A stretch of DNA of 64,000 bases from an uncultured archaeon (GCA_964646855.1 CAZYHQ010000001.1:3414-67413); one strand, 5' to 3'; numbered from the stretch's first letter, positions 4,821 to 63,575 are shown. A program made the numbers and translations. The notes: a model not told the origin generated them from the sequence alone.

Positions 4821-5894
4821 TTACTTAGAACTTAGTATTTCTTTAACTCTTGCCTGGAGCTCTATTTTCATCTTGTCCGCCTTGTATTCCTTGCCGTAGT
4901 AGTCCAGTTTGGCTGCAATGGAAAGTTTTGACGCGAGCACTCTGGCTATTCTTCCCTTCAGTTTTTCTGGGGCGTTCTGCACAAGAGGATGGTTGTACAG
5001 GATTCCGAATCGTGGAGACTTGCCTTGACCGTGCAAAAATCTGAACAGGGCTTTCTCTGCACCTAACAACTGTATTGTTGAAGAGGGCATTCGCGAAATT
5101 TTGTCGAGTCCTCCAGAATGCGCAATCATTTTTGCGGCAAGTGAGGAACCTGCAATAGAAGTGAAGTTTGGTGCAACGCCTTGCAACAAATTATCCAAAT
5201 ATTTTGAAAGCATTTCACGAAGCTCGTACATCTTTACGAGCTCTGATGCAAGTAGCTGCATTGCTTTGACGTCCTCTTCACCGAAATCTGCTCCAATACT
5301 TTTTTCCTTAATCAAATTCAATTCAGGATCTTCTACGTTTTTCCTTTGACCGAATTTTTCAACGAGTTTAACAAATTTTTCATGCGAACTGACTGCACGC
5401 TCCATCTCTGGAAAATGCAAACCGTACCATTCGCGCAAACGCTCGACAAAAATATTTATCGATTTGTCCAGCTCTTCCATCGTTCCGTTAACCTGGGAAA
5501 TCAGACTGTCTCTGCCGACTGCCGACTTGATCTTCACTTTGGCGAGCTCGATGTTGACTTTTGAAAACAGTTGGTTGAACTCTGCTTGATCTTTAATAAT
5601 TTTGTAATCAACAGCCAGCTTTCGCAGATTTTCTTTTACAAAAATTTCAGCCGGGGTGTTGGGCTCTACATGCTTTACTCCTGGCTTTCTGTAGCCGTAA
5701 ATGAATGTTCTGAACTTTTTTCTTCCAAGCTCGTCCCTTACCTGCTTCTCTTCTTCAATCAGCTCGAGCTCTGACTTCTTGAGTTTCTCCGCCGCCTTCG
5801 CTGGATCTCTGGGCAACTGCCTGAACGCCAAAACTTTATTGTCCTCGTCTACCCCGAAAACTCCGACAAAAGTCGTGACAATGTAAGCTTTCAT
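4821..5894 (-). CDS. nop5: Nop5/Nop56-family C/D box snoRNP protein
   Basis: N-terminal NOP5NT-like region, coiled-coil middle, and Nop domain (GKSPRFGILYNHPLVQ, ASKLSIAAKLDYY). Adjacent to fibrillarin on the same strand. Confidence 0.85.
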   Translation of the reverse strand: MKAYIVTTFVGVFGVDEDNKVLAFRQLPRDPAKAAEKLKKSELELIEEEKQVRDELGRKKFRTFIYGYRKPGVKHVEPNTPAEIFVKENLRKLAVDYKIIKDQAEFNQLFSKVNIELAKVKIKSAVGRDSLISQVNGTMEELDKSINIFVERLREWYGLHFPEMERAVSSHEKFVKLVEKFGQRKNVEDPELNLIKEKSIGADFGEEDVKAMQLLASELVKMYELREMLSKYLDNLLQGVAPNFTSIAGSSLAAKMIAHSGGLDKISRMPSSTIQLLGAEKALFRFLHGQGKSPRFGILYNHPLVQNAPEKLKGRIARVLASKLSIAAKLDYYGKEYKADKMKIELQARVKEILSSK

Positions 5895-5933
5895 AGATTT
5901 TTATTTATACTAGTAAACTTTAAATGTGACAAA

Positions 5934-6173
5934 ATGGCAGAGGTAAACCTGGTTTCTGTCGGCATCATGGCGGTTTTGATAGGCGTGGTTTTAATTTTCG
6001 CAGGCATTATGCAGCAATCAAAGGGTAAAACGAAAGTCGAAGGCGGAGGTGTAATCTTCATTGGGCCGATACCGATTATTGGTGCTACAAGCGAACGGGC
6101 ACTTTACTTCGTGATTGCGCTGGCTGTAATCTTTTTATTAATCTCCGTTGTACTAAATTTAGTTGGTAGGTAG
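5934..6173 (+). CDS. small two-helix membrane protein (79 aa), hypothetical
   Basis: Two hydrophobic segments flanking a Gly-rich loop (EGGGVIFIGPIPIIGATSE). Overlaps the htpX start by 11 nt, suggesting co-transcription. Confidence 0.4.
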   Translation: MAEVNLVSVGIMAVLIGVVLIFAGIMQQSKGKTKVEGGGVIFIGPIPIIGATSERALYFVIALAVIFLLISVVLNLVGR

Positions 6174-7026: not shown

Positions 7027-7767
7027 ATGAAGCGCGGAGGGTTGGCACTCCTGATTTCAAAAAATGAAAGTTACGTTACAAGTTTTGATAAAGATTTTCA
7101 CACTAAAGACGGTGTACTCTATGCGAAGTATCTGCGCAAGAAAAAATTCGGTGAAAAAATAAAAACTCATCTTGGAAAAGAATTTCTAATTGTTAAACCC
7201 ACCATTGCAGACATAATCGAGAAAAAAATCAAAAGAACAGCGCAAGTTATTTTGCCGAAAGATGCCGCATTAATTCTTGCTTATACCGGTGTAAATTCGG
7301 ATGCCGTGGTAGTCGATGCTGGAACGGGAAGCGGTTATCTTGCAATTTTTCTCGCAAACTTTTTGAGCAAAGGCAGGATCATAACTTACGAAAATAGAAA
7401 AGAATTTTTTGAAACTGCAAAACAGAATATAAAATCTTCAGGGCTGAAAAATATTTTTGTCAAGCAAAAAGACGTCAGCAAAGGTATAGCTGAAAGAAAT
7501 GTTGACTTGATAACGTTAGATTTGCAAAACGCCAGGGCTGTCGTAAGGCATGCACACAAATCACTGAGGGTTGGTGGGTGGCTGGTGGTCTACTCGCCGA
7601 CTGTGGAGCATTTGACATCTGTTTTGAAGGATGTAAATAGGAAAGGTTTTAGCCAAATAAAAACCGTAGAAAATATTGTTAGGGAGTGGCAAGTCGAAAG
7701 AACGACGCGCCCAAAAACCATAGGGCTGATGCACACTGGCTGGTTAACATTTGCGAGAAAATTGTGA
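7027..7767 (+). CDS. trmI: tRNA (adenine-N1)-methyltransferase TrmI / Gcd14-like
   Basis: Class I SAM motif I (VVDAGTGSGYLAIFLA), the acidic loop ITYENRKE, motif IV-like DLITLD, and a size and layout typical of archaeal TrmI. Confidence 0.7.
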   Translation: MKRGGLALLISKNESYVTSFDKDFHTKDGVLYAKYLRKKKFGEKIKTHLGKEFLIVKPTIADIIEKKIKRTAQVILPKDAALILAYTGVNSDAVVVDAGTGSGYLAIFLANFLSKGRIITYENRKEFFETAKQNIKSSGLKNIFVKQKDVSKGIAERNVDLITLDLQNARAVVRHAHKSLRVGGWLVVYSPTVEHLTSVLKDVNRKGFSQIKTVENIVREWQVERTTRPKTIGLMHTGWLTFARKL

Positions 7768-7771
7768 TTAG

Positions 7772-8383
7772 ATGATTGAAGACAAAGTTAAAAAAATGCA
7801 GGAAGTTCCACCAGAAGAACCTGCTGGACCACAGCCGTACATAAGTCCAGAAATGATACACACGGCTTTCCATGCGCTAGAAACAAAAGGAATGATTTAT
7901 TATTCCGAGGGCGGTGTTTACGTGCCAACCGAAAAGGGCTGGAAGCTTTTGATGAGCATAAGCGGGAATAGAGAAGAGATAACAGCTTACGGTAACGAAA
8001 CAGTAATTGCTACTAACAAAAACTGTTTCGCAATTATTCGAGGTAGTGAAATCAAAACCGATAAGGATTCTATTATCGCTGTAGGTGCAAACAAGTCTGC
8101 TGCTGAATTAAATCCGGAATTTATACGCTCATTGAAAGACAGCAGTAAAAAAATAGAAATGATAATTGAAGCTGATGGTATTGAGGATGTTGTAACTGCC
8201 TACAGTTCACCTGCGCTCAAGCTGAACAACGACAAAGCAGTTGTTGTAAGAAAAGACGACGTTATTGATGGAAGAGTTATTGCAATACTTGCCGATAAGT
8301 CTGCCGCTGATCTTAAAAAAGATTTGACTGAGAAATTAAAGAATCCTAAGACAAAAGTAAAAATAACTTTGGAAATAAAGTAG
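7772..8383 (+). CDS. hypothetical protein with an internally duplicated domain
   Basis: Two tandem ~55-aa segments with similar patterns (EEITAYGNETVIATNK...AIIRG...IIAVGANKSAAEL versus EDVVTAYSSPALKLNND...VIAILADKSAADL). No family recognised. Confidence 0.4.
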   Translation: MIEDKVKKMQEVPPEEPAGPQPYISPEMIHTAFHALETKGMIYYSEGGVYVPTEKGWKLLMSISGNREEITAYGNETVIATNKNCFAIIRGSEIKTDKDSIIAVGANKSAAELNPEFIRSLKDSSKKIEMIIEADGIEDVVTAYSSPALKLNNDKAVVVRKDDVIDGRVIAILADKSAADLKKDLTEKLKNPKTKVKITLEIK

Positions 8384-54739: not shown

Positions 54740-55618
54740 ATACTTGTTACCGGCGGAACAGGAGTAATTGGTTACAAGCTAGTGAAATATTTCGTTGATA
54801 ACGGCGAGAATGCCAGCTACACATATCTTTCACATGAAACCGAAATCAAAAGTGCAATTGGCCACAAACTTGATATAACAGACACGCAAGCAGTTCTTGA
54901 TTTGATAAATAAAATCAAGCCAAACGTCGTTGTACATACTGCGGCATTGACAAAGGTTGACTTGTGCGAAACAAATCACAAACTTGCGGATGCGATGAAT
55001 ATAGAAGGCACAAGAAACATAGTTGAAGCTTGCAAAGCTACCGGCAGCAAAATAGTGTTGGTTTCTACTTCAGCTGTATTCGACGGCAAAAAATCTGTTT
55101 ACTACGAGGACGACGAAGTCAACCCTCAATATTATTATGCTTTCACCAAAGCAGAAGCAGAAAAAATTGTAAAAACTTCTGGCTTAGAATTTCTGATTCT
55201 TCGAACAGACCAACCTTACTGCTGGACAGAGAAGTGGCAGCATGACAACTCAGTTCTGCGAGTGATTAACAAACTGAAGGCAGGAAAGGTTATGAAAGAC
55301 GTTGCTGACTGGTATAACAACCCAACCCTTGTTGACAATTTTGTTGAAGTTGCATTCGCTTTGATCAAGAAAAATCAAACTGGAATCTATCACGTTTGCG
55401 GTTCTGATTATTTGAACCGTTATGAAATGGCACTGAAAGTTGCGGAAGTTTTTGGATTAAATAAAGATTTAGTTCAGTCGATGAAGTCAATAGAACTTAG
55501 CCTGCCAGCAAAAAGAGTTAATGTGAATTTGAATAATGAAAAGGCTCAGAAAGATTCTGGGGTCAAACTGCTAAATTTTGAAGAAGGACTAAACTCAATG
55601 AAAGTAAAAATTGCTTAA
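54734..55618 (+). CDS. RmlD-like NAD(P)H-dependent nucleotide-sugar 4-ketoreductase
   Basis: ILVTGGTGVIGYKL Rossmann motif and YAFTKAEAEK catalytic region. ~295 aa, the size of dTDP-4-dehydrorhamnose reductases. Confidence 0.6.
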   Translation: MQILVTGGTGVIGYKLVKYFVDNGENASYTYLSHETEIKSAIGHKLDITDTQAVLDLINKIKPNVVVHTAALTKVDLCETNHKLADAMNIEGTRNIVEACKATGSKIVLVSTSAVFDGKKSVYYEDDEVNPQYYYAFTKAEAEKIVKTSGLEFLILRTDQPYCWTEKWQHDNSVLRVINKLKAGKVMKDVADWYNNPTLVDNFVEVAFALIKKNQTGIYHVCGSDYLNRYEMALKVAEVFGLNKDLVQSMKSIELSLPAKRVNVNLNNEKAQKDSGVKLLNFEEGLNSMKVKIA

Positions 55619-57813
55619 TTTGAAACAACTGTCTGAAATGTATCATTGTAGGAAGTCTGATTGACAGTTATGTTTGGTGTGTAGATTGCATTGGTTGTAT
55701 AATCAGTCTCAATTATTACGAAAACTTTTTCCGAGTTGTTAAGCGAAGTGGTCTGCGTCGAGTGTATGTTTGATTGGCCGGTATTGAACAACCATGAAAA
55801 TATCTGGCTACCCAAGTTATTGACTATCTCAAAGACCTGAACTGTGCTGTCTTTGTTTTCCTTCAGCACAAGACCGCCCAACACTTCTATCATGTTCACT
55901 TGGAATTTGTCTGCAAAGCTGTTGTTGAAAGTTCCGTTATATGCTTGAACAGCTGGTGTTCTTTTGCCCTGCGCGCTGTAGTTTACTTCTACTGTAAAGT
56001 TTGTAGTTTCTCTCGGCGCAAGAGTTACCGAAGTGTTGCTAGTTACACCTGCATCAGAAATACGCCAATTTATGTTGGAAACATTGTAAGGCCAGTAGTT
56101 TGTTATGTTAAACCTGAAGACTCTTATGTTTGTTTCATTTTTCTTGTAGCTTTCAAAGTTTTCAATTCTTATTGCGTTGAGAACAAATGATTCGTTAAAG
56201 CGATCTGAAATGGCCCCAGAGACTATTGTAACATTAACATCTTTGTTACCGTCAGTAGTGTAGTTTATACTTTGCGTTACTGTGCTTGATGCATCGGTTC
56301 CCAAGCTGCCTGTGCTTCCAGAAAACAGCTGGTCATCGCTTCTTATGTTATAAGTTACCGTCAATGCCGACCAATAATTCTTGATGTTGAACTGCATGTT
56401 TCTATTGTTTTCTCCAACAGAACTTGTGTTGTAATCTTCAATTTTTGTTCCTTTTAGTTCAAACTTTACAAACTTTGTATCGTTTCCTTCGGGTGAAGTT
56501 ACGTTGCAATTTAGGTATTTTGCTCCGGGCGAACCGTATGTTCTGTTGAGGTATTCGGTTCTCCTGCCGAAAGCTGATACAGAAAACGAACTGTTTGACT
56601 TGGCACCGTTATCGCAAGCCCAGTCCATGTTGCTTACAGTAGAATTCAGGCCGTTGAGTATTGTCATGTTGAAATTTGCCTTGTCTCCATTCTGGCTGAT
56701 GAATGATAGCGACCCTATGGTAATTCCAAACTTGTTTGTAATGTTTTCGAAATCATAAGAACCAGGATTAGACCGTGCCGTCACATTTACTTTGTAACTT
56801 CCGCCAGATGAGTAATTATGTTCGACTATAACTAACACTGATTCGTTGGTCGATACATTAAATGCATTTGTAGAAATAATCTGATTGCCGTCTCCAAAAT
56901 CTGCAGTCCAGTTTACATCTGTAATTGTAGAATTCTTTTCGTTTGCAAGATAAAACTGGAAAGTTCTGTTTCTGTCAGCAGAATAAAGATTTTCTTGTCT
57001 GCTAACATCTACGCCAGCATCCACCGTTACTATCTGCGACGGCGCGTGCACAGGGTAACTGCCGTAAACGAATTTTGTTGTATTGGCACTGTCTCTCACT
57101 ATTTTCAGAATGTTGCCTATCGGATTGTATGAGTATAACCAAGTGTTGCCTGCGATAGAAACATTTACCAGCCTGTCCAGAAAGTCATAAGCCATTCTGT
57201 AAGTTCGATTGTTTGCGGTGTCATTAATCAGGACAATGTTGCCCACAGAATCATACGTGTAATTAATATTTTGAATCGCACCAGTTTTTATTTGCTGCAA
57301 TCTTGAATTTGTTTCATTGTAAGTCTGTTCAGTAATCCTGGTATTTGCATAAGTCCTGTTCAGCATTTTGTCGAACGCATCGTAGAAAGTATTGGTTATG
57401 TAGTTAGTAATCTTGTTTACCTTGCTCTGGTTGTTGTAGTAGTATTCTATTTCTTGTCCTGTTAAATTTATTTCAAGTACTCTATCCATAGAGTCATAGA
57501 CATATCTTTTCTCAAATTGTATACCATCGATAATCCTGATTTCCGTTATCAGTCTCAGTTTGTCATTGTATTCGTACTTTACTGTGTCATTGCCGAATGT
57601 AACGTTTGTCAGAGTTCCTTGGTGTTGCTCGTCGTAAGTGTAGTTTATGCTAATGCCTGTAGAATTTTTAGTTACAATTCTGTTTAACGCATCGTAAGTT
57701 ATGTTCACTTGGTTCGTCGGATTGTCGTAAGTTAAATCTTGTGTGGCAGCAATCGCCAACTGCGGGATTAATGCAAAAACGATCATTGCAAATAAAAACA
57801 ATTTAGTCTTCAT
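55615..57813 (-). CDS. secreted YD-repeat protein with Ig/PKD-like domains, extremely rich in N-x-S/T sequons
   Basis: Signal peptide MKTKLFLFAMIVFALIPQLAIAA. N-terminal YD repeats (YTYDALNRIV, YTYDEQHQG, YEYNDKLRL, YVYDSMDRV, YTYDSVGNI), then beta-rich repeats with more than 40 N-x-S/T sites. Start at the ATG at 57813. Confidence 0.7.
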   Translation of the reverse strand: MKTKLFLFAMIVFALIPQLAIAATQDLTYDNPTNQVNITYDALNRIVTKNSTGISINYTYDEQHQGTLTNVTFGNDTVKYEYNDKLRLITEIRIIDGIQFEKRYVYDSMDRVLEINLTGQEIEYYYNNQSKVNKITNYITNTFYDAFDKMLNRTYANTRITEQTYNETNSRLQQIKTGAIQNINYTYDSVGNIVLINDTANNRTYRMAYDFLDRLVNVSIAGNTWLYSYNPIGNILKIVRDSANTTKFVYGSYPVHAPSQIVTVDAGVDVSRQENLYSADRNRTFQFYLANEKNSTITDVNWTADFGDGNQIISTNAFNVSTNESVLVIVEHNYSSGGSYKVNVTARSNPGSYDFENITNKFGITIGSLSFISQNGDKANFNMTILNGLNSTVSNMDWACDNGAKSNSSFSVSAFGRRTEYLNRTYGSPGAKYLNCNVTSPEGNDTKFVKFELKGTKIEDYNTSSVGENNRNMQFNIKNYWSALTVTYNIRSDDQLFSGSTGSLGTDASSTVTQSINYTTDGNKDVNVTIVSGAISDRFNESFVLNAIRIENFESYKKNETNIRVFRFNITNYWPYNVSNINWRISDAGVTSNTSVTLAPRETTNFTVEVNYSAQGKRTPAVQAYNGTFNNSFADKFQVNMIEVLGGLVLKENKDSTVQVFEIVNNLGSQIFSWLFNTGQSNIHSTQTTSLNNSEKVFVIIETDYTTNAIYTPNITVNQTSYNDTFQTVVSN

Positions 57814-58027
57814 AGAAACCTCCTGAGACAATTCTCATCAGCTCTTTGAACGGAGTGTAAATTTTCGTGCTGGCAGAATCGTTGCGAGAAATCTCTGACA
57901 GTCTTAACGAAAGAATTCGGAAATTATTTTTGGAAAATATTTTTATTTCAGCTAGATAATTTTGATTGTCCTTTGTTAATTTTTTTACTATAATTATTTT
58001 ATTTTCTAAAAGCGACTCTTGTTTCAT
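57803..58027 (-). pseudogene. orphan ORF carrying a fragment of the RHS core (…RNDSASTKIYTPFKELMRIV…)
   Basis: The 74-aa ORF has a C-terminal half that duplicates 20 aa found in the large RHS protein. Confidence 0.35.
57836..57883. repeat. 48-bp direct repeat (46/48 identical to 59607-59654) derived from the RHS core-coding region
   Basis: catcagctctttgaacgg[a/c]gtgtaaattttcgtgctggc[a/t]gaatcgtt. Encodes ...STKIYTPFKELMRIV... on the minus strand in both copies. Confidence 0.85.
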
Positions 58028-58590
58028 TGTTCAGAAACCTCCCTTGTTTGGTTAAGAACAATAGTTTTACCAGTGTCAGGATCACATACTAAGAAGTCTT
58101 TGTTTTGATTGTACCAACCTTTCCAAGCATTAAGAATCTGGTCTTGGTTAGTTTCGTTGACAGAGCCAAGATATACACCGGTAATTGCATTAAGTATAAC
58201 GTTTATAGTTTTTCCAACAGTGTTCTTGCCTATAACACCGTATTCTTCAAAAGATCCTCTAGGGAGAATTATCAACGCATTGCTACTATCTGTTCGGTTA
58301 AGATTATCTATCAGAATTGGTATTGAATTATCAGAAAGTAAAATCAATTCCGCAACACTCCTGTAAGATAGAGCAGCATCATAAGATGTTATATCGTCAA
58401 TACGTTTCTGAATTTCTTCTTTTGAGAGGCTGTAACTACAAGATGGCGTCGATTCGTAGAAATCTCGTACGTCTCTTAATGTTTGTTCGTCTACAGTACT
58501 TTTTTCTATCAAAAACAAAATAATTACAAGAAAAATAGCTACAAGAGTTACAAAAACAAATTTTATGTTTAAATAATTCCTAATTCTCAA
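58024..58590 (-). CDS. small membrane-anchored protein, candidate cognate immunity/partner of the RHS metallopeptidase toxin
   Basis: 188 aa with an N-terminal signal anchor. Its (TTG) start overlaps the RHS stop in a TTGA arrangement, so translation is coupled. Confidence 0.5.
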   Translation of the reverse strand: MRIRNYLNIKFVFVTLVAIFLVIILFLIEKSTVDEQTLRDVRDFYESTPSCSYSLSKEEIQKRIDDITSYDAALSYRSVAELILLSDNSIPILIDNLNRTDSSNALIILPRGSFEEYGVIGKNTVGKTINVILNAITGVYLGSVNETNQDQILNAWKGWYNQNKDFLVCDPDTGKTIVLNQTREVSEQ

Positions 58591-61500
58591 TTAAGATCAC
58601 TTTGTGTTCTTGGTTCAATGAGATGAGTCTCTTTTCCAGTCAGCCAAGTATCAATAAAAGGATCTAGTGGTCTAAACCACCATCTGACCGCACCAACAAA
58701 ACTGGTCCATGTATCTTTAGGTTCGTCTTTAAAATACGGATCAATGATTGCATTTGTGTTTTCTTGTTTTGCGTGGTAAAATTTTCCCGGGTTCATAATG
58801 TTCTCTGCATCAAGGCGGTCGTCCAAACCAAAGAAATGACCGACCTCATGTACGTATTGCTCTCGATCTGTAGTCCATTCACCAGTCCTACCATAGTTAT
58901 TATCTAATGGAAGATTACCAAAAGGAACGATAGATTTATCTCTCTTAGAAATACTAAAGATTTCTACGGCATTCTCATACAAGGGTATGTAATCAGGCTT
59001 ACTACTTACATATGCAACCTTAACATCAAATCTTACATTATAAGTCTGCCCCCCGCTTTGATAAGTAAATCCTTGATTCCAAACGAAATTTATATCTTCT
59101 TCCATTTGCTTTGCAAGATCTGCATTAGCAGCATCACCATAAATGTAGATTGTGGTGCTAACCACGATTTCTTTATTTTCGTCGTCAATTACAAGTTTTG
59201 CATCTCTTCCTGTCGGGTCGATATATTTTATCGGATTGTTTAACGAATATGAAAATCTATTCAAACTCTGGGAATTATATATATTTGGTACATTTACATC
59301 AGGTTGATGCCATCTGCCTATACACGGATTGTAATATCTGGCACCATAATAAAATTGACAACTAGAATCTTTGAATTGCCCAGTGTATAGTTTATTTTCA
59401 GCACTTCCCCCACCCAGCAACTCCCCGAACGGACTATAGAACGTGTTCTCAACAACATTCCCATTCTGATTTGTTATTAAACTAGTGCTTCCCAAATGAT
59501 CCGGATGATAGTAATATTTCGAGCCGTCTGGATTGACACGTGCGACTAAAGTACCGTCTTGGTAAATGTAAGTGAAGTCAAATGTTCCGCTGCTATTAAC
59601 TATCCGCATCAGCTCTTTGAACGGCGTGTAAATTTTCGTGCTGGCTGAATCGTTTCTCTCGATTTTTATGCGGATACCAAACGGATCGTATGTGTAATTT
59701 TCGATAATTGGTGAACTGACAGTAGAGCCATTGCGAATTATTATCAACTGATTTAGCGCGTCATACTCGCGATAAAATCCGTCACCAGTTACTAAATTGC
59801 CACCACCCTGTTGCTGCTGGCGAATTAAATTTCCAGCAAGATTGTAAGTGTAAGTCCAGTTGCCGAGATCAGGATCGATCAATGCGGTGCGCCTGCCGAG
59901 TGAATCGTAAGTAAAACTAAAAATGTTTCCTAACGAATCAGTAATTTTTACGAGATTATCACTAGTGTCGTACTCATAGCTAGTATTGTAAATGTCTGAC
60001 TCGAAATTCCAGCCGAGAACAGGATCGTTATTGTATTCGAGAACATTTTTAATACGATCGTATGTATCAAGAACGTAAGCCTTGCGATGTCCATTTTCAT
60101 CGTATGCTGTAATCGTGCGATGGTCGAAATTAATTGTCTTGTTGCTGCTATCCGGATTCAAAACAAAATTAACTCTGCCTAGAGTATCGTAAGTGTAATT
60201 AGTAGCATTAACAGTTGAAGAAGGAGTTGACAATGAAACAGAAAACGTATCGAAATATGGATTGCTCTCAGAAATAACTCTGCCCAATCCGTCATAATAA
60301 AAGTTTTTGACAATCTGCCTGTTGTTGTCTGCCGGACGCTTTAGCTGAATGAAGTTTCCAAATCCATCATAGTAAAAATATGTATCTGAAGTTTTGTTCG
60401 CTGAAGTTCGCTGTGAAATCTTAATATATTCAGGAGTATTACCATCGAAAAAGTAAGTGTAATTCTTAGTAGGCAACTCGTATGAATCAAACGGTTGCAC
60501 TTCCTTAATTATTCTGCCGAAAATGTCGTAGTAGAAATAATTAGTGATTTCGTTCTGCTTCTGCCAAATCAGATTGCCGGTACCAATGTCATAAGCGTAA
60601 TCAGCAGTGTGGAACAAAGCATTAGTGATTCTGTCTGGGTAAGTGAACGTAGTGTCGCGCAACCCGTATGTGTAAGTCGTCTCAGCACCGAGCGGATTGG
60701 TCTCGCGGATTACATTGCCGAGAGAATCGTATGCAAACTTTGTCTTTTGATTGCCTCCAGTATCCAGCCAGTTGTCTATTTCTGTCAAGTCTCCGCGAAT
60801 GGGAGCAGCAGAGTAAGGAAGATTATCGTAAGAATATTTTGTCTCTATAACCTTTGTAGAGTTGTCAGAAGCAAACAGCAAGTACCAGCTAAGTCTGTCA
60901 ACAATCCAGCCAGAAGTGTTTAATGCGTATGCATACCGCTCGTATTTTTCATCGCCGCTGATGTTAACATCGCCGAAGAAATTTCTGTGCAAAACATTTC
61001 CATAACTGTCGTAAACGTAAGAAACATTTGTGATGTTTGGTGCAATCGGTGAACCGTCGTAGAAATAATTTGTCTGAGACAGCAGGAAAGTTTTGTGATA
61101 CAGATTGCCTCCAACGGAGATGTTTGTATAATTAAAGAAATTTTCAGCGCGAGAAAACAAACTGCGGGAAGAATTGTAAATTTCAGTTTTGTATTCCTTG
61201 CCTTTGCGGGCATCGTCTTGATGGAAATAATGGACAATTAAACTTTTGTCAGGAAGAGTTTCGTTTGTCAAGGCAAACCCGCGGAATTCGGAATTGTCGT
61301 AATCGTAACTTCCGCCGGAGTAGTTGTATGTATAGTTTGCAATTACAGCAAACCTGCCGGGCATCGAGTTGTTTTGCAAAACATTCCGTACGACCCAAAT
61401 ATTGAATCCTAAATCGGACAGCGAGTCGTTGCCTGTGTTGTTGAATTGAGTTGACTTGTTGTACTGGACAGAAACGGAGTCTATTGTAATTGTCCCGCCG

Positions 61501-63575
61501 TATTCAGTTGTTATCTTTTTCAGCAGGAATGGAGTGGTAATGTTTTTCTCCCATGTCCAGAACTGGGTAGTAGTCTCGTTCTTGTAGGCTACCACAAGGT
61601 CTGCAAACCCGTCGCCATTGACATCAGCAAGCCTCCTGCCTTTATTCTGGCCATGACTCAGAAGAATTTCATTTACATTCCAAGAGTCATTTTGCAACCA
61701 GCCAGTGCCGTTGTTTATCCAAACATGTTTTTCTGTATTTGTGCTGTTTTCCATCCCAACCACAAGGTCTACCAACCCATCCCCGTTTATTTCCAAAAGT
61801 CTGAGACCTGTATCGCCATTATCTACAAAGTTCATCGGAATATCATTCCAAACAGAGGAATTTTCCCAACCATTGCCGTTATTCAGCCAAGCACGTTTCG
61901 TCTGACCACCGCCCCATTCTCTGTAGGATTCGATTATATCTGGAAGACCGTCGCCATTGACGTCTTCAACTCTTACTCCCTTGTCTGTGTTGCCATCCAT
62001 GAAGTAAGTCGGCGGCAGCCAAGTTGCGGTCGCGTCTGTCCAACCTTTTCCTGTGTTCAGCCATGCCGATTTGTTTTTTGGGCTCTCGAAAGTGTTTTCC
62101 CTAGACATCAAAATGTCCACTCTGCCGTCTCCGTTGAAGTCGGTGAACAGCACACCGAAATCAGGGATTCCCGTAGAACTTCTAACAAAATCTATGGGTG
62201 GCTTCCAGATGCTAGATACATCAATCCATCCGTTGCCGTTGTTCATCCACGCTTTTCTCTCTGAAGGGTAAGTCGCATCGGCACGAAGTATGTCAACAAA
62301 CCCGTCGCCGTTGAAATCCACAAGCCTGAAACCGTAATCTTCCTGCAGAGGACCGAGGAACTCAATCGGCGGAGCCCATACAGAACTCGCGTCAGTCCAA
62401 TTGTTCGCACCGTTGTTGAGCCAAGCCTTTTTTGCAATATTGCCGCCACTGAAGTCCCTGCCCTGTATCATATCGACGTAACCGTCCCTGTTCAGATCCA
62501 CCAGACGCACGCCATCATCTTCAATGGTGTCTGAAAACTCGACTGGTGCAATCCAGACTGTCGTGCGGTTTCTGTAACCAATCTCTGGATAATGATATGC
62601 AAAGGAAACTTGGTGCAGCAAAGATGTACCATCTGAACCAAAATATTTTATTTTTGCAAGCGAGAACGACGACTGTTCCGCGCTCAAATTTGCATATTCG
62701 AATCTGTAATTTCTTACGGCCAACCCGTTAGCCCAAACGACTATCTCCGAAAGTCTCCTGCTTTGGTTTACGTAATGACCCTGTTCGATTACCAACCTTC
62801 TAGCGCCTGTAGCCTCGTAACTGAAATCTACCTGCCTCTGTTGGTCGTTGTTGTAGACAATCTGCGAAGGATAAGTAACATTCCTGTCTTCTGGATTCGA
62901 GTTTTCAAGATACGAGTAAATTATCTTGTTGTCGTGAGTGTCCTTGACTTCGTCCAAGTACCAGCGGAGCGAATAGTTTCTTGCCACAGTAGACTCCAAC
63001 TCGGAATCATTGTTGTAACCAAACCTGTATCGCATGCCGTCTTTCGTTGTGACAACCCAATAAACGCTGTTGTTATTTGGAGCGCCTGTCAGGTTTTGTA
63101 CTTTCAAAAACGATTCCATTTTTGTGTGGTAAAGACCATCAGATGAGTCGTAAACCAAATCGTAAGAAGCATCGTTGAAAATTAATTTGAATTCGTCGTC
63201 GCTAACATTGCTGGGAGTGGAGTTTACGTCTCTGTATACGTAGTTCTGTGTGATTGACCAACCGGAACCCAGCAAACCGCTTTGTTTTGCAGACTGGCTG
63301 TTATAGGACAGTGCAACCGACGGTTGCAGACCGTTCGTGCCAGACGGCGTTTCAATTGAATACGTATAAGTCGCCGCACCTGGGAACAAATTAGTTGCGT
63401 AACTTCCGTACAATTTTAATTTCGGATGCTCGGGAATCTGCGGTTCATGCAGGTAGGGTTTGTAAGGATCTGCGGCTGATGCATGTTGCACATTAAAAAG
63501 GAAAATCGTGAAAAATAAAATTGCGAAAACAACCTCGAAATTTTTTTGGGGTAAAATTTTCTGAATAAATTTCAC
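58587..63575 (-). CDS. Tc-toxin/teneurin-like RHS-repeat polymorphic toxin with C-terminal zinc-metallopeptidase domain
   Basis: Signal peptide (…FNVQHASA-ADP); six FG-GAP/VCBS-like motifs (DLNRDGYVDM, DFNGDGFVDIL, DFNGDGRVDIL, DVNGDGLPDII, INGDGLVDLV, DVNGDGFADLV); many YD repeats; RHS core (YYHPDHLGSTSL...YTGQ...YYGARYYNPCIGRWHQPD...YIDPTGR); then a ~230-aa tip with HEVGHFFGLDD (HExxHxxGxxD). Confidence 0.85.
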   Translation of the reverse strand: MKFIQKILPQKNFEVVFAILFFTIFLFNVQHASAADPYKPYLHEPQIPEHPKLKLYGSYATNLFPGAATYTYSIETPSGTNGLQPSVALSYNSQSAKQSGLLGSGWSITQNYVYRDVNSTPSNVSDDEFKLIFNDASYDLVYDSSDGLYHTKMESFLKVQNLTGAPNNNSVYWVVTTKDGMRYRFGYNNDSELESTVARNYSLRWYLDEVKDTHDNKIIYSYLENSNPEDRNVTYPSQIVYNNDQQRQVDFSYEATGARRLVIEQGHYVNQSRRLSEIVVWANGLAVRNYRFEYANLSAEQSSFSLAKIKYFGSDGTSLLHQVSFAYHYPEIGYRNRTTVWIAPVEFSDTIEDDGVRLVDLNRDGYVDMIQGRDFSGGNIAKKAWLNNGANNWTDASSVWAPPIEFLGPLQEDYGFRLVDFNGDGFVDILRADATYPSERKAWMNNGNGWIDVSSIWKPPIDFVRSSTGIPDFGVLFTDFNGDGRVDILMSRENTFESPKNKSAWLNTGKGWTDATATWLPPTYFMDGNTDKGVRVEDVNGDGLPDIIESYREWGGGQTKRAWLNNGNGWENSSVWNDIPMNFVDNGDTGLRLLEINGDGLVDLVVGMENSTNTEKHVWINNGTGWLQNDSWNVNEILLSHGQNKGRRLADVNGDGFADLVVAYKNETTTQFWTWEKNITTPFLLKKITTEYGGTITIDSVSVQYNKSTQFNNTGNDSLSDLGFNIWVVRNVLQNNSMPGRFAVIANYTYNYSGGSYDYDNSEFRGFALTNETLPDKSLIVHYFHQDDARKGKEYKTEIYNSSRSLFSRAENFFNYTNISVGGNLYHKTFLLSQTNYFYDGSPIAPNITNVSYVYDSYGNVLHRNFFGDVNISGDEKYERYAYALNTSGWIVDRLSWYLLFASDNSTKVIETKYSYDNLPYSAAPIRGDLTEIDNWLDTGGNQKTKFAYDSLGNVIRETNPLGAETTYTYGLRDTTFTYPDRITNALFHTADYAYDIGTGNLIWQKQNEITNYFYYDIFGRIIKEVQPFDSYELPTKNYTYFFDGNTPEYIKISQRTSANKTSDTYFYYDGFGNFIQLKRPADNNRQIVKNFYYDGLGRVISESNPYFDTFSVSLSTPSSTVNATNYTYDTLGRVNFVLNPDSSNKTINFDHRTITAYDENGHRKAYVLDTYDRIKNVLEYNNDPVLGWNFESDIYNTSYEYDTSDNLVKITDSLGNIFSFTYDSLGRRTALIDPDLGNWTYTYNLAGNLIRQQQQGGGNLVTGDGFYREYDALNQLIIIRNGSTVSSPIIENYTYDPFGIRIKIERNDSASTKIYTPFKELMRIVNSSGTFDFTYIYQDGTLVARVNPDGSKYYYHPDHLGSTSLITNQNGNVVENTFYSPFGELLGGGSAENKLYTGQFKDSSCQFYYGARYYNPCIGRWHQPDVNVPNIYNSQSLNRFSYSLNNPIKYIDPTGRDAKLVIDDENKEIVVSTTIYIYGDAANADLAKQMEEDINFVWNQGFTYQSGGQTYNVRFDVKVAYVSSKPDYIPLYENAVEIFSISKRDKSIVPFGNLPLDNNYGRTGEWTTDREQYVHEVGHFFGLDDRLDAENIMNPGKFYHAKQENTNAIIDPYFKDEPKDTWTSFVGAVRWWFRPLDPFIDTWLTGKETHLIEPRTQSDLN
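59607..59654. repeat. 48-bp direct repeat, copy inside the RHS gene (partner of 57836-57883)
   Basis: See the partner repeat. Confidence 0.85.

Follow-up and report, generated by a model that had tools for sequence, protein, structure and literature searches.

We analysed a stretch of 64,000 nucleotides from an uncultured archaeon (GCA_964646855.1, CAZYHQ010000001.1:3414-67413), referred to here as the window, and propose that a short direct repeat bracketing the 3' part of its RHS toxin gene probably marks the place of a displaced toxin module. The locus is an RHS polymorphic-toxin operon on the minus strand of an archaeal genome, from a DPANN host resembling Aenigmatarchaeota. Its genes follow one another in the order main RHS gene, putative immunity gene, a short open reading frame (ORF) of 74 codons (ORF74), and a gene for a protein with YD repeats and a PKD domain (the YD/PKD gene), with stop and start codons overlapping at each join. 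The explanation that we favour, and consider quite likely, is that the downstream copy of the repeat, located in ORF74, is the stub of a once complete orphan module, which would have consisted of a leader, a shell fragment, a core and a toxin, followed by an immunity gene. Understood in this way, the repeat is a recombination scar and a potential substrate for deletion, not a switch.

The repeat copies at 57836-57883 and 59607-59654 match at 46 of 48 positions, and the similarity reaches over 57828-57883 and 59599-59654 (51/56, or 91%). This pair, reported in the initial annotation, was recovered when the window was compared with itself by blastn, as the sole non-trivial match (E 7.6e-15), and a search of the window for the 48-mer with up to three mismatches found exactly two sites, with 0 expected from 100 shuffles. 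Both copies encode RNDSASTKIYTPFKELMRIV on the minus strand, and the peptide (R)NDSASTKIYTPFKELMRIV is the same in the two. Over the 20 codons that span the pair there are eight nucleotide differences, all of them synonymous, the longest perfect run being 20 nucleotides (nt). The upstream copy (59599-59654, minus strand) is placed within the main RHS gene, where it corresponds to amino acids (aa) 1308-1326, NDSASTKIYTPFKELMRIV. It was initially described as core-coding sequence; it does precede the Rhs-associated core domain, but it belongs to the YD shell, 54 residues upstream of that domain (TIGR03696), and not to the core itself. The downstream copy (57828-57883, minus strand) is the only RHS-shell sequence remaining in ORF74. 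The motif YTPFKEL is nearly invariant across all homologues.

ORF74 (57803-58027, minus strand, 74 aa), correctly recognized from the outset as a short reading frame just before the second YD gene, is best described as the vestigial stub of an orphan. A degenerate leader (aa 1-47) is followed in it by 20 RHS-shell codons and a read-through, and the ORF is preceded by its own GGGAGG, with the ATG 9 nt later. Its 3' end reads through the ribosome-binding site (GGAGG) and the start ATG (57813) of the YD/PKD gene, and its translation stops 8 nt inside that gene, 7 codons past the repeat, with no core, toxin or immunity gene. Residues 17-73 of ORF74 align with residues 49-105 of the orphan protein P0042, that is, with the second half of a type A leader and the junction between leader and shell, which falls at the same residue. 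In an exhaustive HMMER search of 1.84 billion representatives, the only meaningful matches were ORF74 itself, P0122, P0042 and P0123; P0122, from locus L003, is a 79-aa counterpart of ORF74 with 75% identity, and P0123 is a 181-aa stub with the C-terminus ...MRITSRGFYEN*. It is because of this alignment and these matches that we read ORF74 as a shortened leader joined to 20 shell codons and, as part of the explanation favoured above, as the likely vestige of an orphan RHS module. Like an orphan module, it repeats a 3' part of the main RHS gene in direct orientation and lies beyond the main immunity gene on its downstream side. It has neither an alternative core and toxin tip nor an immunity gene of its own, which makes it the vestige of an orphan rather than an orphan module, and it possesses translation initiation signals, the absence of which is a mark of bacterial orphans.

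Comparison with relatives places ORF74 in a recurrent arrangement. Eleven further loci (L001, L003-L006, L015-L017, L021-L023) were obtained and mapped by tblastn; alignment-based contig scans gave three and three true relatives, and a contig scan with the single YD protein found no relatives. A 462-aa query from the RHS C-terminus retrieved many proteins of 350-780 aa composed of a non-RHS leader, a shell fragment with a variable start, a core and a variable tip. The leaders are conserved, have about 50-95 aa, and occur as type A (MQQYLxPxHxLPxED...), type A2 (MQQLLLNQ...YWKKL...) and type B (a signal peptide, then AFDY...FPINLTILE...). None of them has a Pfam family, and a profile built from 12 leader sequences found no homologue at E<=0.01. 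In an AlphaFold2 (AF2) model of P0042, the leader (pLDDT 48-68) forms two helices and hairpins that run into the YD sheet. GGAGG, ATG and a leader are present in all 11 related orphans and stubs examined, and the leader, orphan or stub starts lie at 5881-6114, 8125-8358 and 10001-10228 in L001, 1287-1511 in L005, 9677-9919 in L017, 9103-9390 in L016, 10001-10246 and 11488-11772 in L021, about 9651-9890 in L006, and 58027-57887 in the window.

One to three intact orphans, or stubs, are found in the related loci between the main immunity gene and the YD/PKD gene. Intact orphan modules occur in L001, L021 and L022. L001 contains the main RHS gene, an immunity gene, three intact leader-A orphans, each with a small downstream gene, and the YD/PKD gene, with no stub. 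In L021, the main gene and its immunity gene are followed by a leader-B orphan, another immunity gene, a 134-aa leader-B stub and the YD gene, and in L022/L023 by a leader-B orphan, a TsiV-family gene and a 229-aa leader-A2 stub, with no YD gene next. The stub stands immediately before the YD gene in L004, L005, L006, L016, L017 and the short contig L003, and L015 (2719-5493) combines the YD/PKD gene with a shell stub of 102 aa, with no main RHS gene within 5 kb. Altogether, a truncated terminal stub is present in nine of the ten related loci (L003, L004, L005, L006, L015/L016, L017, L021 and L022). Orthologues of the YD/PKD protein, 48-73% identical, directly follow the array in L001, L003, L004, L005, L006, L016, L017 and L021 (11648-13882 in L001, 10536-12725 in L004, 10488-12671 in L017 and 11889-14087 in L021). 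Wherever a main gene and a stub occur together, the locus has a direct repeat of its own, 56 bp at 91% in the window and 93-586 bp at 78-83% in the others. The alignment of ORF74 to the P0042 junction, together with orphans and stubs at the same position in relatives, supports the initial proposal that the repeat is a footprint of orphan formation or tip displacement.

In the window, L003, L004, L005, L006, L017 and L021, the 3' junction of the stub is common: the RHS sequence runs to aa ~1322-1330 and there joins the YD gene's GGAGG (57803-57836 in the window, 366-390 in L003, 10510-10546 in L004, ~1575-1610 in L005, ~9975-10000 in L006 and 11860-11892 in L021). It is fullest in L021 (...ATGAGGATTGTTAACAGTTCAGGAGG..ATG), where the RHS codons for 'SSG' and the ribosome-binding site of the YD gene overlap; from this form the other junctions have lost 6, 12 or 21 nt by deletion, and the reading frame is kept in each. 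The stub ORFs stop at the YD start codon or 8 nt after it. The sequence 5' of the junction varies, with leader A, A2, B or none, and with the shell joined at aa 1305, 1138, 1291 or 1259. L003 is a mosaic, since its leader resembles that of the window (~80% nucleotide identity) and the part from the first repeat codons through the YD gene resembles L017 (>90%), the stub of which has a different leader and a 185-codon shell fragment. The varied leader types and 5' joins, together with one mosaic switching at the repeat, indicate that crossovers have occurred here in evolution. The comparison with relatives that was called for initially thus revealed extensive variation at this junction, including a switch at the very start of the repeat. 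Microhomology at RIVN was considered for the L015/L016 junction and dropped once the DNA was read.

We infer the following order of events, which is the simplest that accounts for the common 3' junction and the varied 5' parts. Older RHS 3' ends would have been pushed downstream as new segments of shell 3' end, core, toxin and immunity gene arrived, as in bacterial rhs loci, and in this lineage each of the displaced modules would begin with its own Shine-Dalgarno (SD) sequence, ATG and leader of ~50-95 aa. One old deletion may have produced the terminal stub, which is still present in most relatives; this deletion would have begun near RHS aa 1330 in the last module and reached the ribosome-binding site of the YD/PKD gene. 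Later deletions by homologous recombination between an upstream copy and the stub would renew the 5' part of the latter and keep its 3' junction, and such renewal would alter both the leader type and the join point.

If a crossover between the two copies took place in the window today, it would excise 1771 bp, comprising the last shell repeats, the core, the tip, the 188-aa putative immunity ORF and the leader of ORF74. The predicted product is a 1333-aa RHS protein ending in ...MRIVSGGFYED*, with no core plug, toxin or immunity gene. The copies are thus a possible substrate for this deletion, and the initial estimate of a ~1.7-kb loss of the tip and the putative immunity gene agrees with it, except that the core would be lost as well. 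The tip switching suggested at the same time does not follow, because no alternative tip lies downstream of the main one and the stub has no core, toxin or immunity gene, so that a crossover gives loss and not a switch. Nor is the term hotspot substantiated for this genome, where the homology amounts to 56 bp with a longest perfect run of 20 nt. Efficient RecA-type recombination in Escherichia coli needs at least ~20-30 bp. The 1771-bp deletion is likely to be counter-selected; co-deletion of the immunity gene was noted as a cost at bacterial loci (PMC3967940, PMC3150448).

The near-identity of the copies (46/48) reflects common descent from functional RHS alleles and was probably sharpened by a recent crossover or conversion tract. 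The pair in the window is the most similar of 105 pairs compared (43/45; mean 35.1, sd 2.6). Between its copies, 2 of the 48 central nucleotides differ vs 6 of the 12 flanking ones, which encode the same residues (Fisher 4e-4, with boundaries chosen post hoc), and it looks like a bounded exchange tract. Several observations speak against the history proposed above, or against recent exchange as part of it. One pair from different genomes reaches 42/45, and because the segment is highly conserved, near-identity alone is no proof of recent exchange. The stubs of L017 and L006 are not especially close to the main genes resident beside them (35/54 in L017, 41/54 in L006), and concerted evolution of stub and main gene, which did not hold across the loci, is at most suggested for the window. 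A tip-exchange breakpoint at the repeat was sought in the identity profiles between main genes and was not seen. No deletion or alternative-tip variant of this genome was encountered, the exact-protein look-ups having yielded one partial contig of the same strain with the YD protein and no record with ORF74, the immunity protein (with an L or M start) or the RHS protein. Finally, there is a signal of purifying selection in the stub ORF, and SD and ATG are kept at every locus, which would not be expected of a pure relic unless it were young or regularly renewed.

This last point leads to an alternative that is possible, although rather unlikely, namely that ORF74 is a maintained small gene, which couples or tunes expression of the YD/PKD gene or whose peptide, composed of the leader and YTPFKEL, has a role of its own. 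The repeat would then be kept by selection on the peptide; such a view is compatible with the origin of ORF74 from an orphan and differs from ours as to its present role. Apart from the SD and ATG conserved before every stub, it draws support from the comparison of ORF74 with P0122 of L003, in which the leader shows 14.5 synonymous differences per 23.7 sites vs 14.5 nonsynonymous ones per 96.3 sites (P ~5e-4), with the same synonymous bias in the repeat part. The selection signal may, however, predate the stub and stem from the stage of a functional orphan, in which case the stubs are young and the renewal model fits; otherwise the stub ORF is useful itself. Similarly, the three junction deletions, all multiples of 3 nt, and stubs ending at or just past the YD start codon may indicate translational coupling or chance, the probability of the in-frame pattern by chance being about 0.04 with three events only. 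A maintained gene is also hard to reconcile with stub lengths of 74-295 aa and three leader types or none, with the lack of a stub in L001 and the presence of one in L022 without a YD gene next to it, and with the strong GGAGG that the YD gene itself has. As a separate observation, the last ORF of the array overlaps translationally with the start of the ~730-aa YD/PKD gene.

Another alternative, which we regard as very improbable, is that the repeat marks the integration of a site-specific or circular cassette. A circle carrying a shell fragment, core, toxin, immunity gene and leader would enter a tip-less RHS gene by a single crossover, its integration making the flanking direct repeats and its excision restoring an empty site. 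The constant right junction, the variable leader and join, the position of leaders right after immunity genes, and conserved DNA just before the leader ATGs (GGAGGTCTCTnAnTAATG) could all be accommodated by such a cassette. Neither a nearby recombinase nor a fixed attachment site, as in integron-like elements, was found: precomputed Pfam labels show no integrase or recombinase among the annotated neighbours of L001, L004, L021 and L022, and the join points are scattered over aa 1000-1305, which general homologous or illegitimate recombination fits better than a fixed att site. Moreover, no empty site, that is, a tip-less RHS gene abutting the YD gene, was found among the 10 loci.

An assembly artefact, in which a collapsed or chimeric join would have copied a piece of the RHS gene beside the YD gene, is extremely improbable. 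The sequence comes from a metagenome-type assembly, and a contig of the Logan assembly L020 (SRR12113384), from the same strain and identical to the window over 57909-50389 at 100%, breaks off at window position 57909, 26 nt past the repeat, in the unique part of ORF74. This contig nevertheless carries the downstream copy with unique sequence on both sides, so that the copy and its flanks are independently reproduced, and the initial concern that the repeat might be artefactual can be set aside. The break is not due to the repeat, because perfect identity in the latter stays below 31 nt; low coverage could account for it, and so could strain heterogeneity upstream. The copies also differ at 5/56 positions in a codon-synonymous way, and the main-plus-stub layout recurs in at least eight independent assemblies. 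Equally hard to believe is that the 48-nt tract, present twice, acts as a nucleic-acid element, whether through RNA structure, as a regulatory target or as a site of protein binding, since, for all its sharp bounds of near-identity, it folds no better than shuffles (z -0.9 and -0.7), has no Rfam family (the sole match, E 0.56, is far below threshold), shows no covariation or conserved non-coding copies outside RHS genes, and is accounted for by the coding conservation of YTPFKEL.

Returning to the orphan-stub explanation, the feature is derived from, and works like, the orphan-module system of bacterial rhs and contact-dependent inhibition (CDI) loci (PMC3150448, PMC3967940). The closest parallel is the rhs-main/rhs-CT-orphan pair of Salmonella Typhimurium LT2, which recombines experimentally through homology of 522 bp at 95% (Koskiniemi et al. 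2014, PMC3967940). There, as here, a full rhs gene with its immunity gene is followed by an rhs fragment in direct orientation, and a crossover between such repeats takes out the main tip together with its immunity gene. The Salmonella orphan, however, is a working toxin/immunity pair that allows a tip switch, whereas the homology in the window spans 56 bp and is followed by no toxin, the host is archaeal, and SD, ATG and leader belong to the fragment itself. In Enterobacteria, Yersinia and Dickeya, arrays of orphan cdiA-CT/cdiI and rhs-CT/rhsI modules likewise have displaced C-terminal pieces downstream of the main gene, with upstream homology of variable length, and some of the fragments are degenerate and lack immunity genes; these arrays were proposed to serve as a reservoir for exchange through recombination (Poole et al. 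2011, PMC3150448). According to the same paper, bacterial orphans 'generally lack translation initiation signals', in contrast to the archaeal orphans and stubs, each of which has GGAGG, ATG and a conserved leader, and only the archaeal arrays end at a conserved YD/PKD gene. In the sequential displacement described for Vibrio cholerae type VI secretion loci (PMC5361080), incoming effector/immunity modules displace residents and leave downstream arrays and short homologous remnants, as we assume here; the remnants described there are orphan immunity genes, unlike the toxin-gene stub without an immunity gene found in the window.

As regards the wider meaning of these findings, polymorphic RHS loci with orphan arrays are textbook matter in Proteobacteria, and little has been written on them for archaea. 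Polymorphic toxin systems were described as rare in archaea (PMC3482391), and no paper on RHS in DPANN archaea was found in the literature searched. Against the literature found, what is new is the DPANN setting, the leader-bearing, translatable orphans and the conserved terminal stub beside the YD/PKD gene. The window and about ten relatives show that DPANN archaea of the episymbiotic type keep the same arms-race layout of a main toxin, an immunity gene and displaced modules, and that these arrays have changed shape through recombination within the segment coding for the shell. Leader-bearing orphans and the terminal stub might reveal turnover of the toxin repertoire in organisms with tiny genomes. 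A bolder version, which we put forward tentatively and consider doubtful, is that displaced DPANN RHS tips are re-capped with SD, ATG and a leader (at least three types, one with a signal peptide) to become independently translated 'mini-RHS' toxins, and that the terminal stub is actively retained, either as a fixed downstream homology anchor renewed by orphan-stub deletions or as a translational coupler for the YD/PKD gene. If true, this would constitute a distinct archaeal organisation of the polymorphic-toxin reservoir.

The main RHS gene (58587-63575, minus strand), delimited by ORF listing, translation and family matches, encodes 1662 aa with a signal-peptide-like N-terminus of the Sec type, followed by SpvB, FG-GAP, TcdB_midN, a YD shell, the Rhs-associated core and a variable tip. 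Pfam matches include SpvB, FG-GAP_3 (2e-21), TcdB_toxin_midN (7e-21) and RHS_repeat (PF05593, 1.1e-17), and those of NCBIfam TIGR01643 (1.6e-14) and Rhs_assc_core (TIGR03696, 1.4e-16); according to precomputed annotation, homologues carry the TEN_YD-shell family. A layout of SpvB, FG-GAP, TcdB_midN, YD and core domains is that of a fused BC cocoon, which encapsulates a C-terminal toxin. The protein resembles in this respect the TcB-TcC components of Tc toxins and the teneurin-type YD shells, with the same SpvB, FG-GAP beta-propeller, TcdB_midN, YD shell and Rhs core. It differs from Tc toxins in that no TcA-like partner was seen, and in its Sec-type N-terminus, richness in sequons and location on an archaeal chromosome. 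The core (59208-59438, minus strand, aa 1380-1456) ends in NNPIKYIDPTGR, with the PxxxxDPxG motif that defines the boundary between shell and toxin. The 120 homologues can be aligned with the main protein to about aa 1456-1464 and diverge beyond that, and nucleotide identity to five orthologous main genes drops from ~70% to ~35% past aa 1453. YD repeats, core and hypervariable C-terminus are those of an Rhs/YD-repeat polymorphic toxin.

The variable tip (58590-59204, minus strand, aa 1458-1662, 205 aa) contains the motif HEVGHFFGLDD (HExxHxxGxxD) and is a putative peptidase of the zincin or metzincin type. The designation of a metallopeptidase tip given initially is right as to the motif and overstated otherwise, as the Pfam matches centred on it (Zincin_1 0.007, Peptidase_M10 0.03, M54 and M66) are all below the gathering score. 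Searches found no relative of the tip sequence in PDB and no counterpart in related loci, and a single-sequence AF2 model (pLDDT 43) is too poor for use of the fold. The next ORF (58024-58590, minus strand, 188 aa), with an N-terminal hydrophobic helix, has a TTG start overlapping the RHS stop (TTGA) and a stop overlapping the start of ORF74 (ATGA), and is coupled to the RHS gene in translation. It is its position that makes it the putative cognate immunity protein, and the initial label of immunity gene is valid to that extent and no further; it matches no Pfam or NCBIfam family, and a search of related loci found no homologue, so that it is confined to the window locus. The principle of tip and immunity gene is supported in this group of loci by two of them: in L001 a Barstar-domain gene comes after an orphan with an RNase tip, and in L022 a TsiV-family gene comes after a tip. 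Downstream of ORF74, the YD/PKD gene (55615-57813, minus strand) encodes a secreted protein of 732 aa with Pfam RHS_repeat and PKD matches and forms the 3' boundary of the orphan array.

The G+C content is 0.32-0.39 over ORF74, the 188-aa ORF and the tip (57800-59400), compared with 0.40-0.50 in the RHS shell and 0.41 in the window, which fits a horizontally exchanged cassette. The genes nearby indicate an archaeal chromosome, as they include a DNA polymerase of family B, a helicase of the Hel308 type that has the archaeal domain 4, and PMT glycosyltransferases; the best RHS homologues, like the related loci, carry the labels Aenigmatarchaeota, Woesearchaeota or Nanoarchaeota. Sequons for N-glycosylation (N-x-S/T) are about twofold enriched in the main RHS protein (44 vs 21.8+-4.4 in shuffles) and number 44 vs 18.0+-3.8 in the YD/PKD protein; this enrichment is absent from the cytoplasmic proteins of the window. 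The neighbourhood of the locus is rich in genes for PMT-type glycosyltransferases and sugar-nucleotide metabolism. Two further families of direct repeats, D1 and D2 (48 and 38 nt, with a spacing of ~170-360 nt, at 61583-62323), were rejected as a separate feature, as they are FG-GAP units of the N-terminal propeller of the RHS protein.

Some features of the relatives deserve separate mention. In L022 (11762-12451; 6029-6718 in L023) the 229-aa stub is cut at about RHS aa 1288 and a convergent gene comes next. In L015, an unannotated 748-aa protein without a Pfam family stands in place of the main RHS protein, and the main toxin may have been lost or replaced there. Many DPANN 'mini-RHS' proteins of ~400-480 aa (among P0060-P0120) have a signal peptide, a YD shell starting at ~aa 1259, a core and a variable tip, and seem too short for a closed shell. 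The Barstar-domain gene (273 aa) that follows the RNase-tipped orphan of L001 contains a perfect 41-nt direct repeat (7499-7539 and 7907-7947) and may encode an internally duplicated immunity protein.

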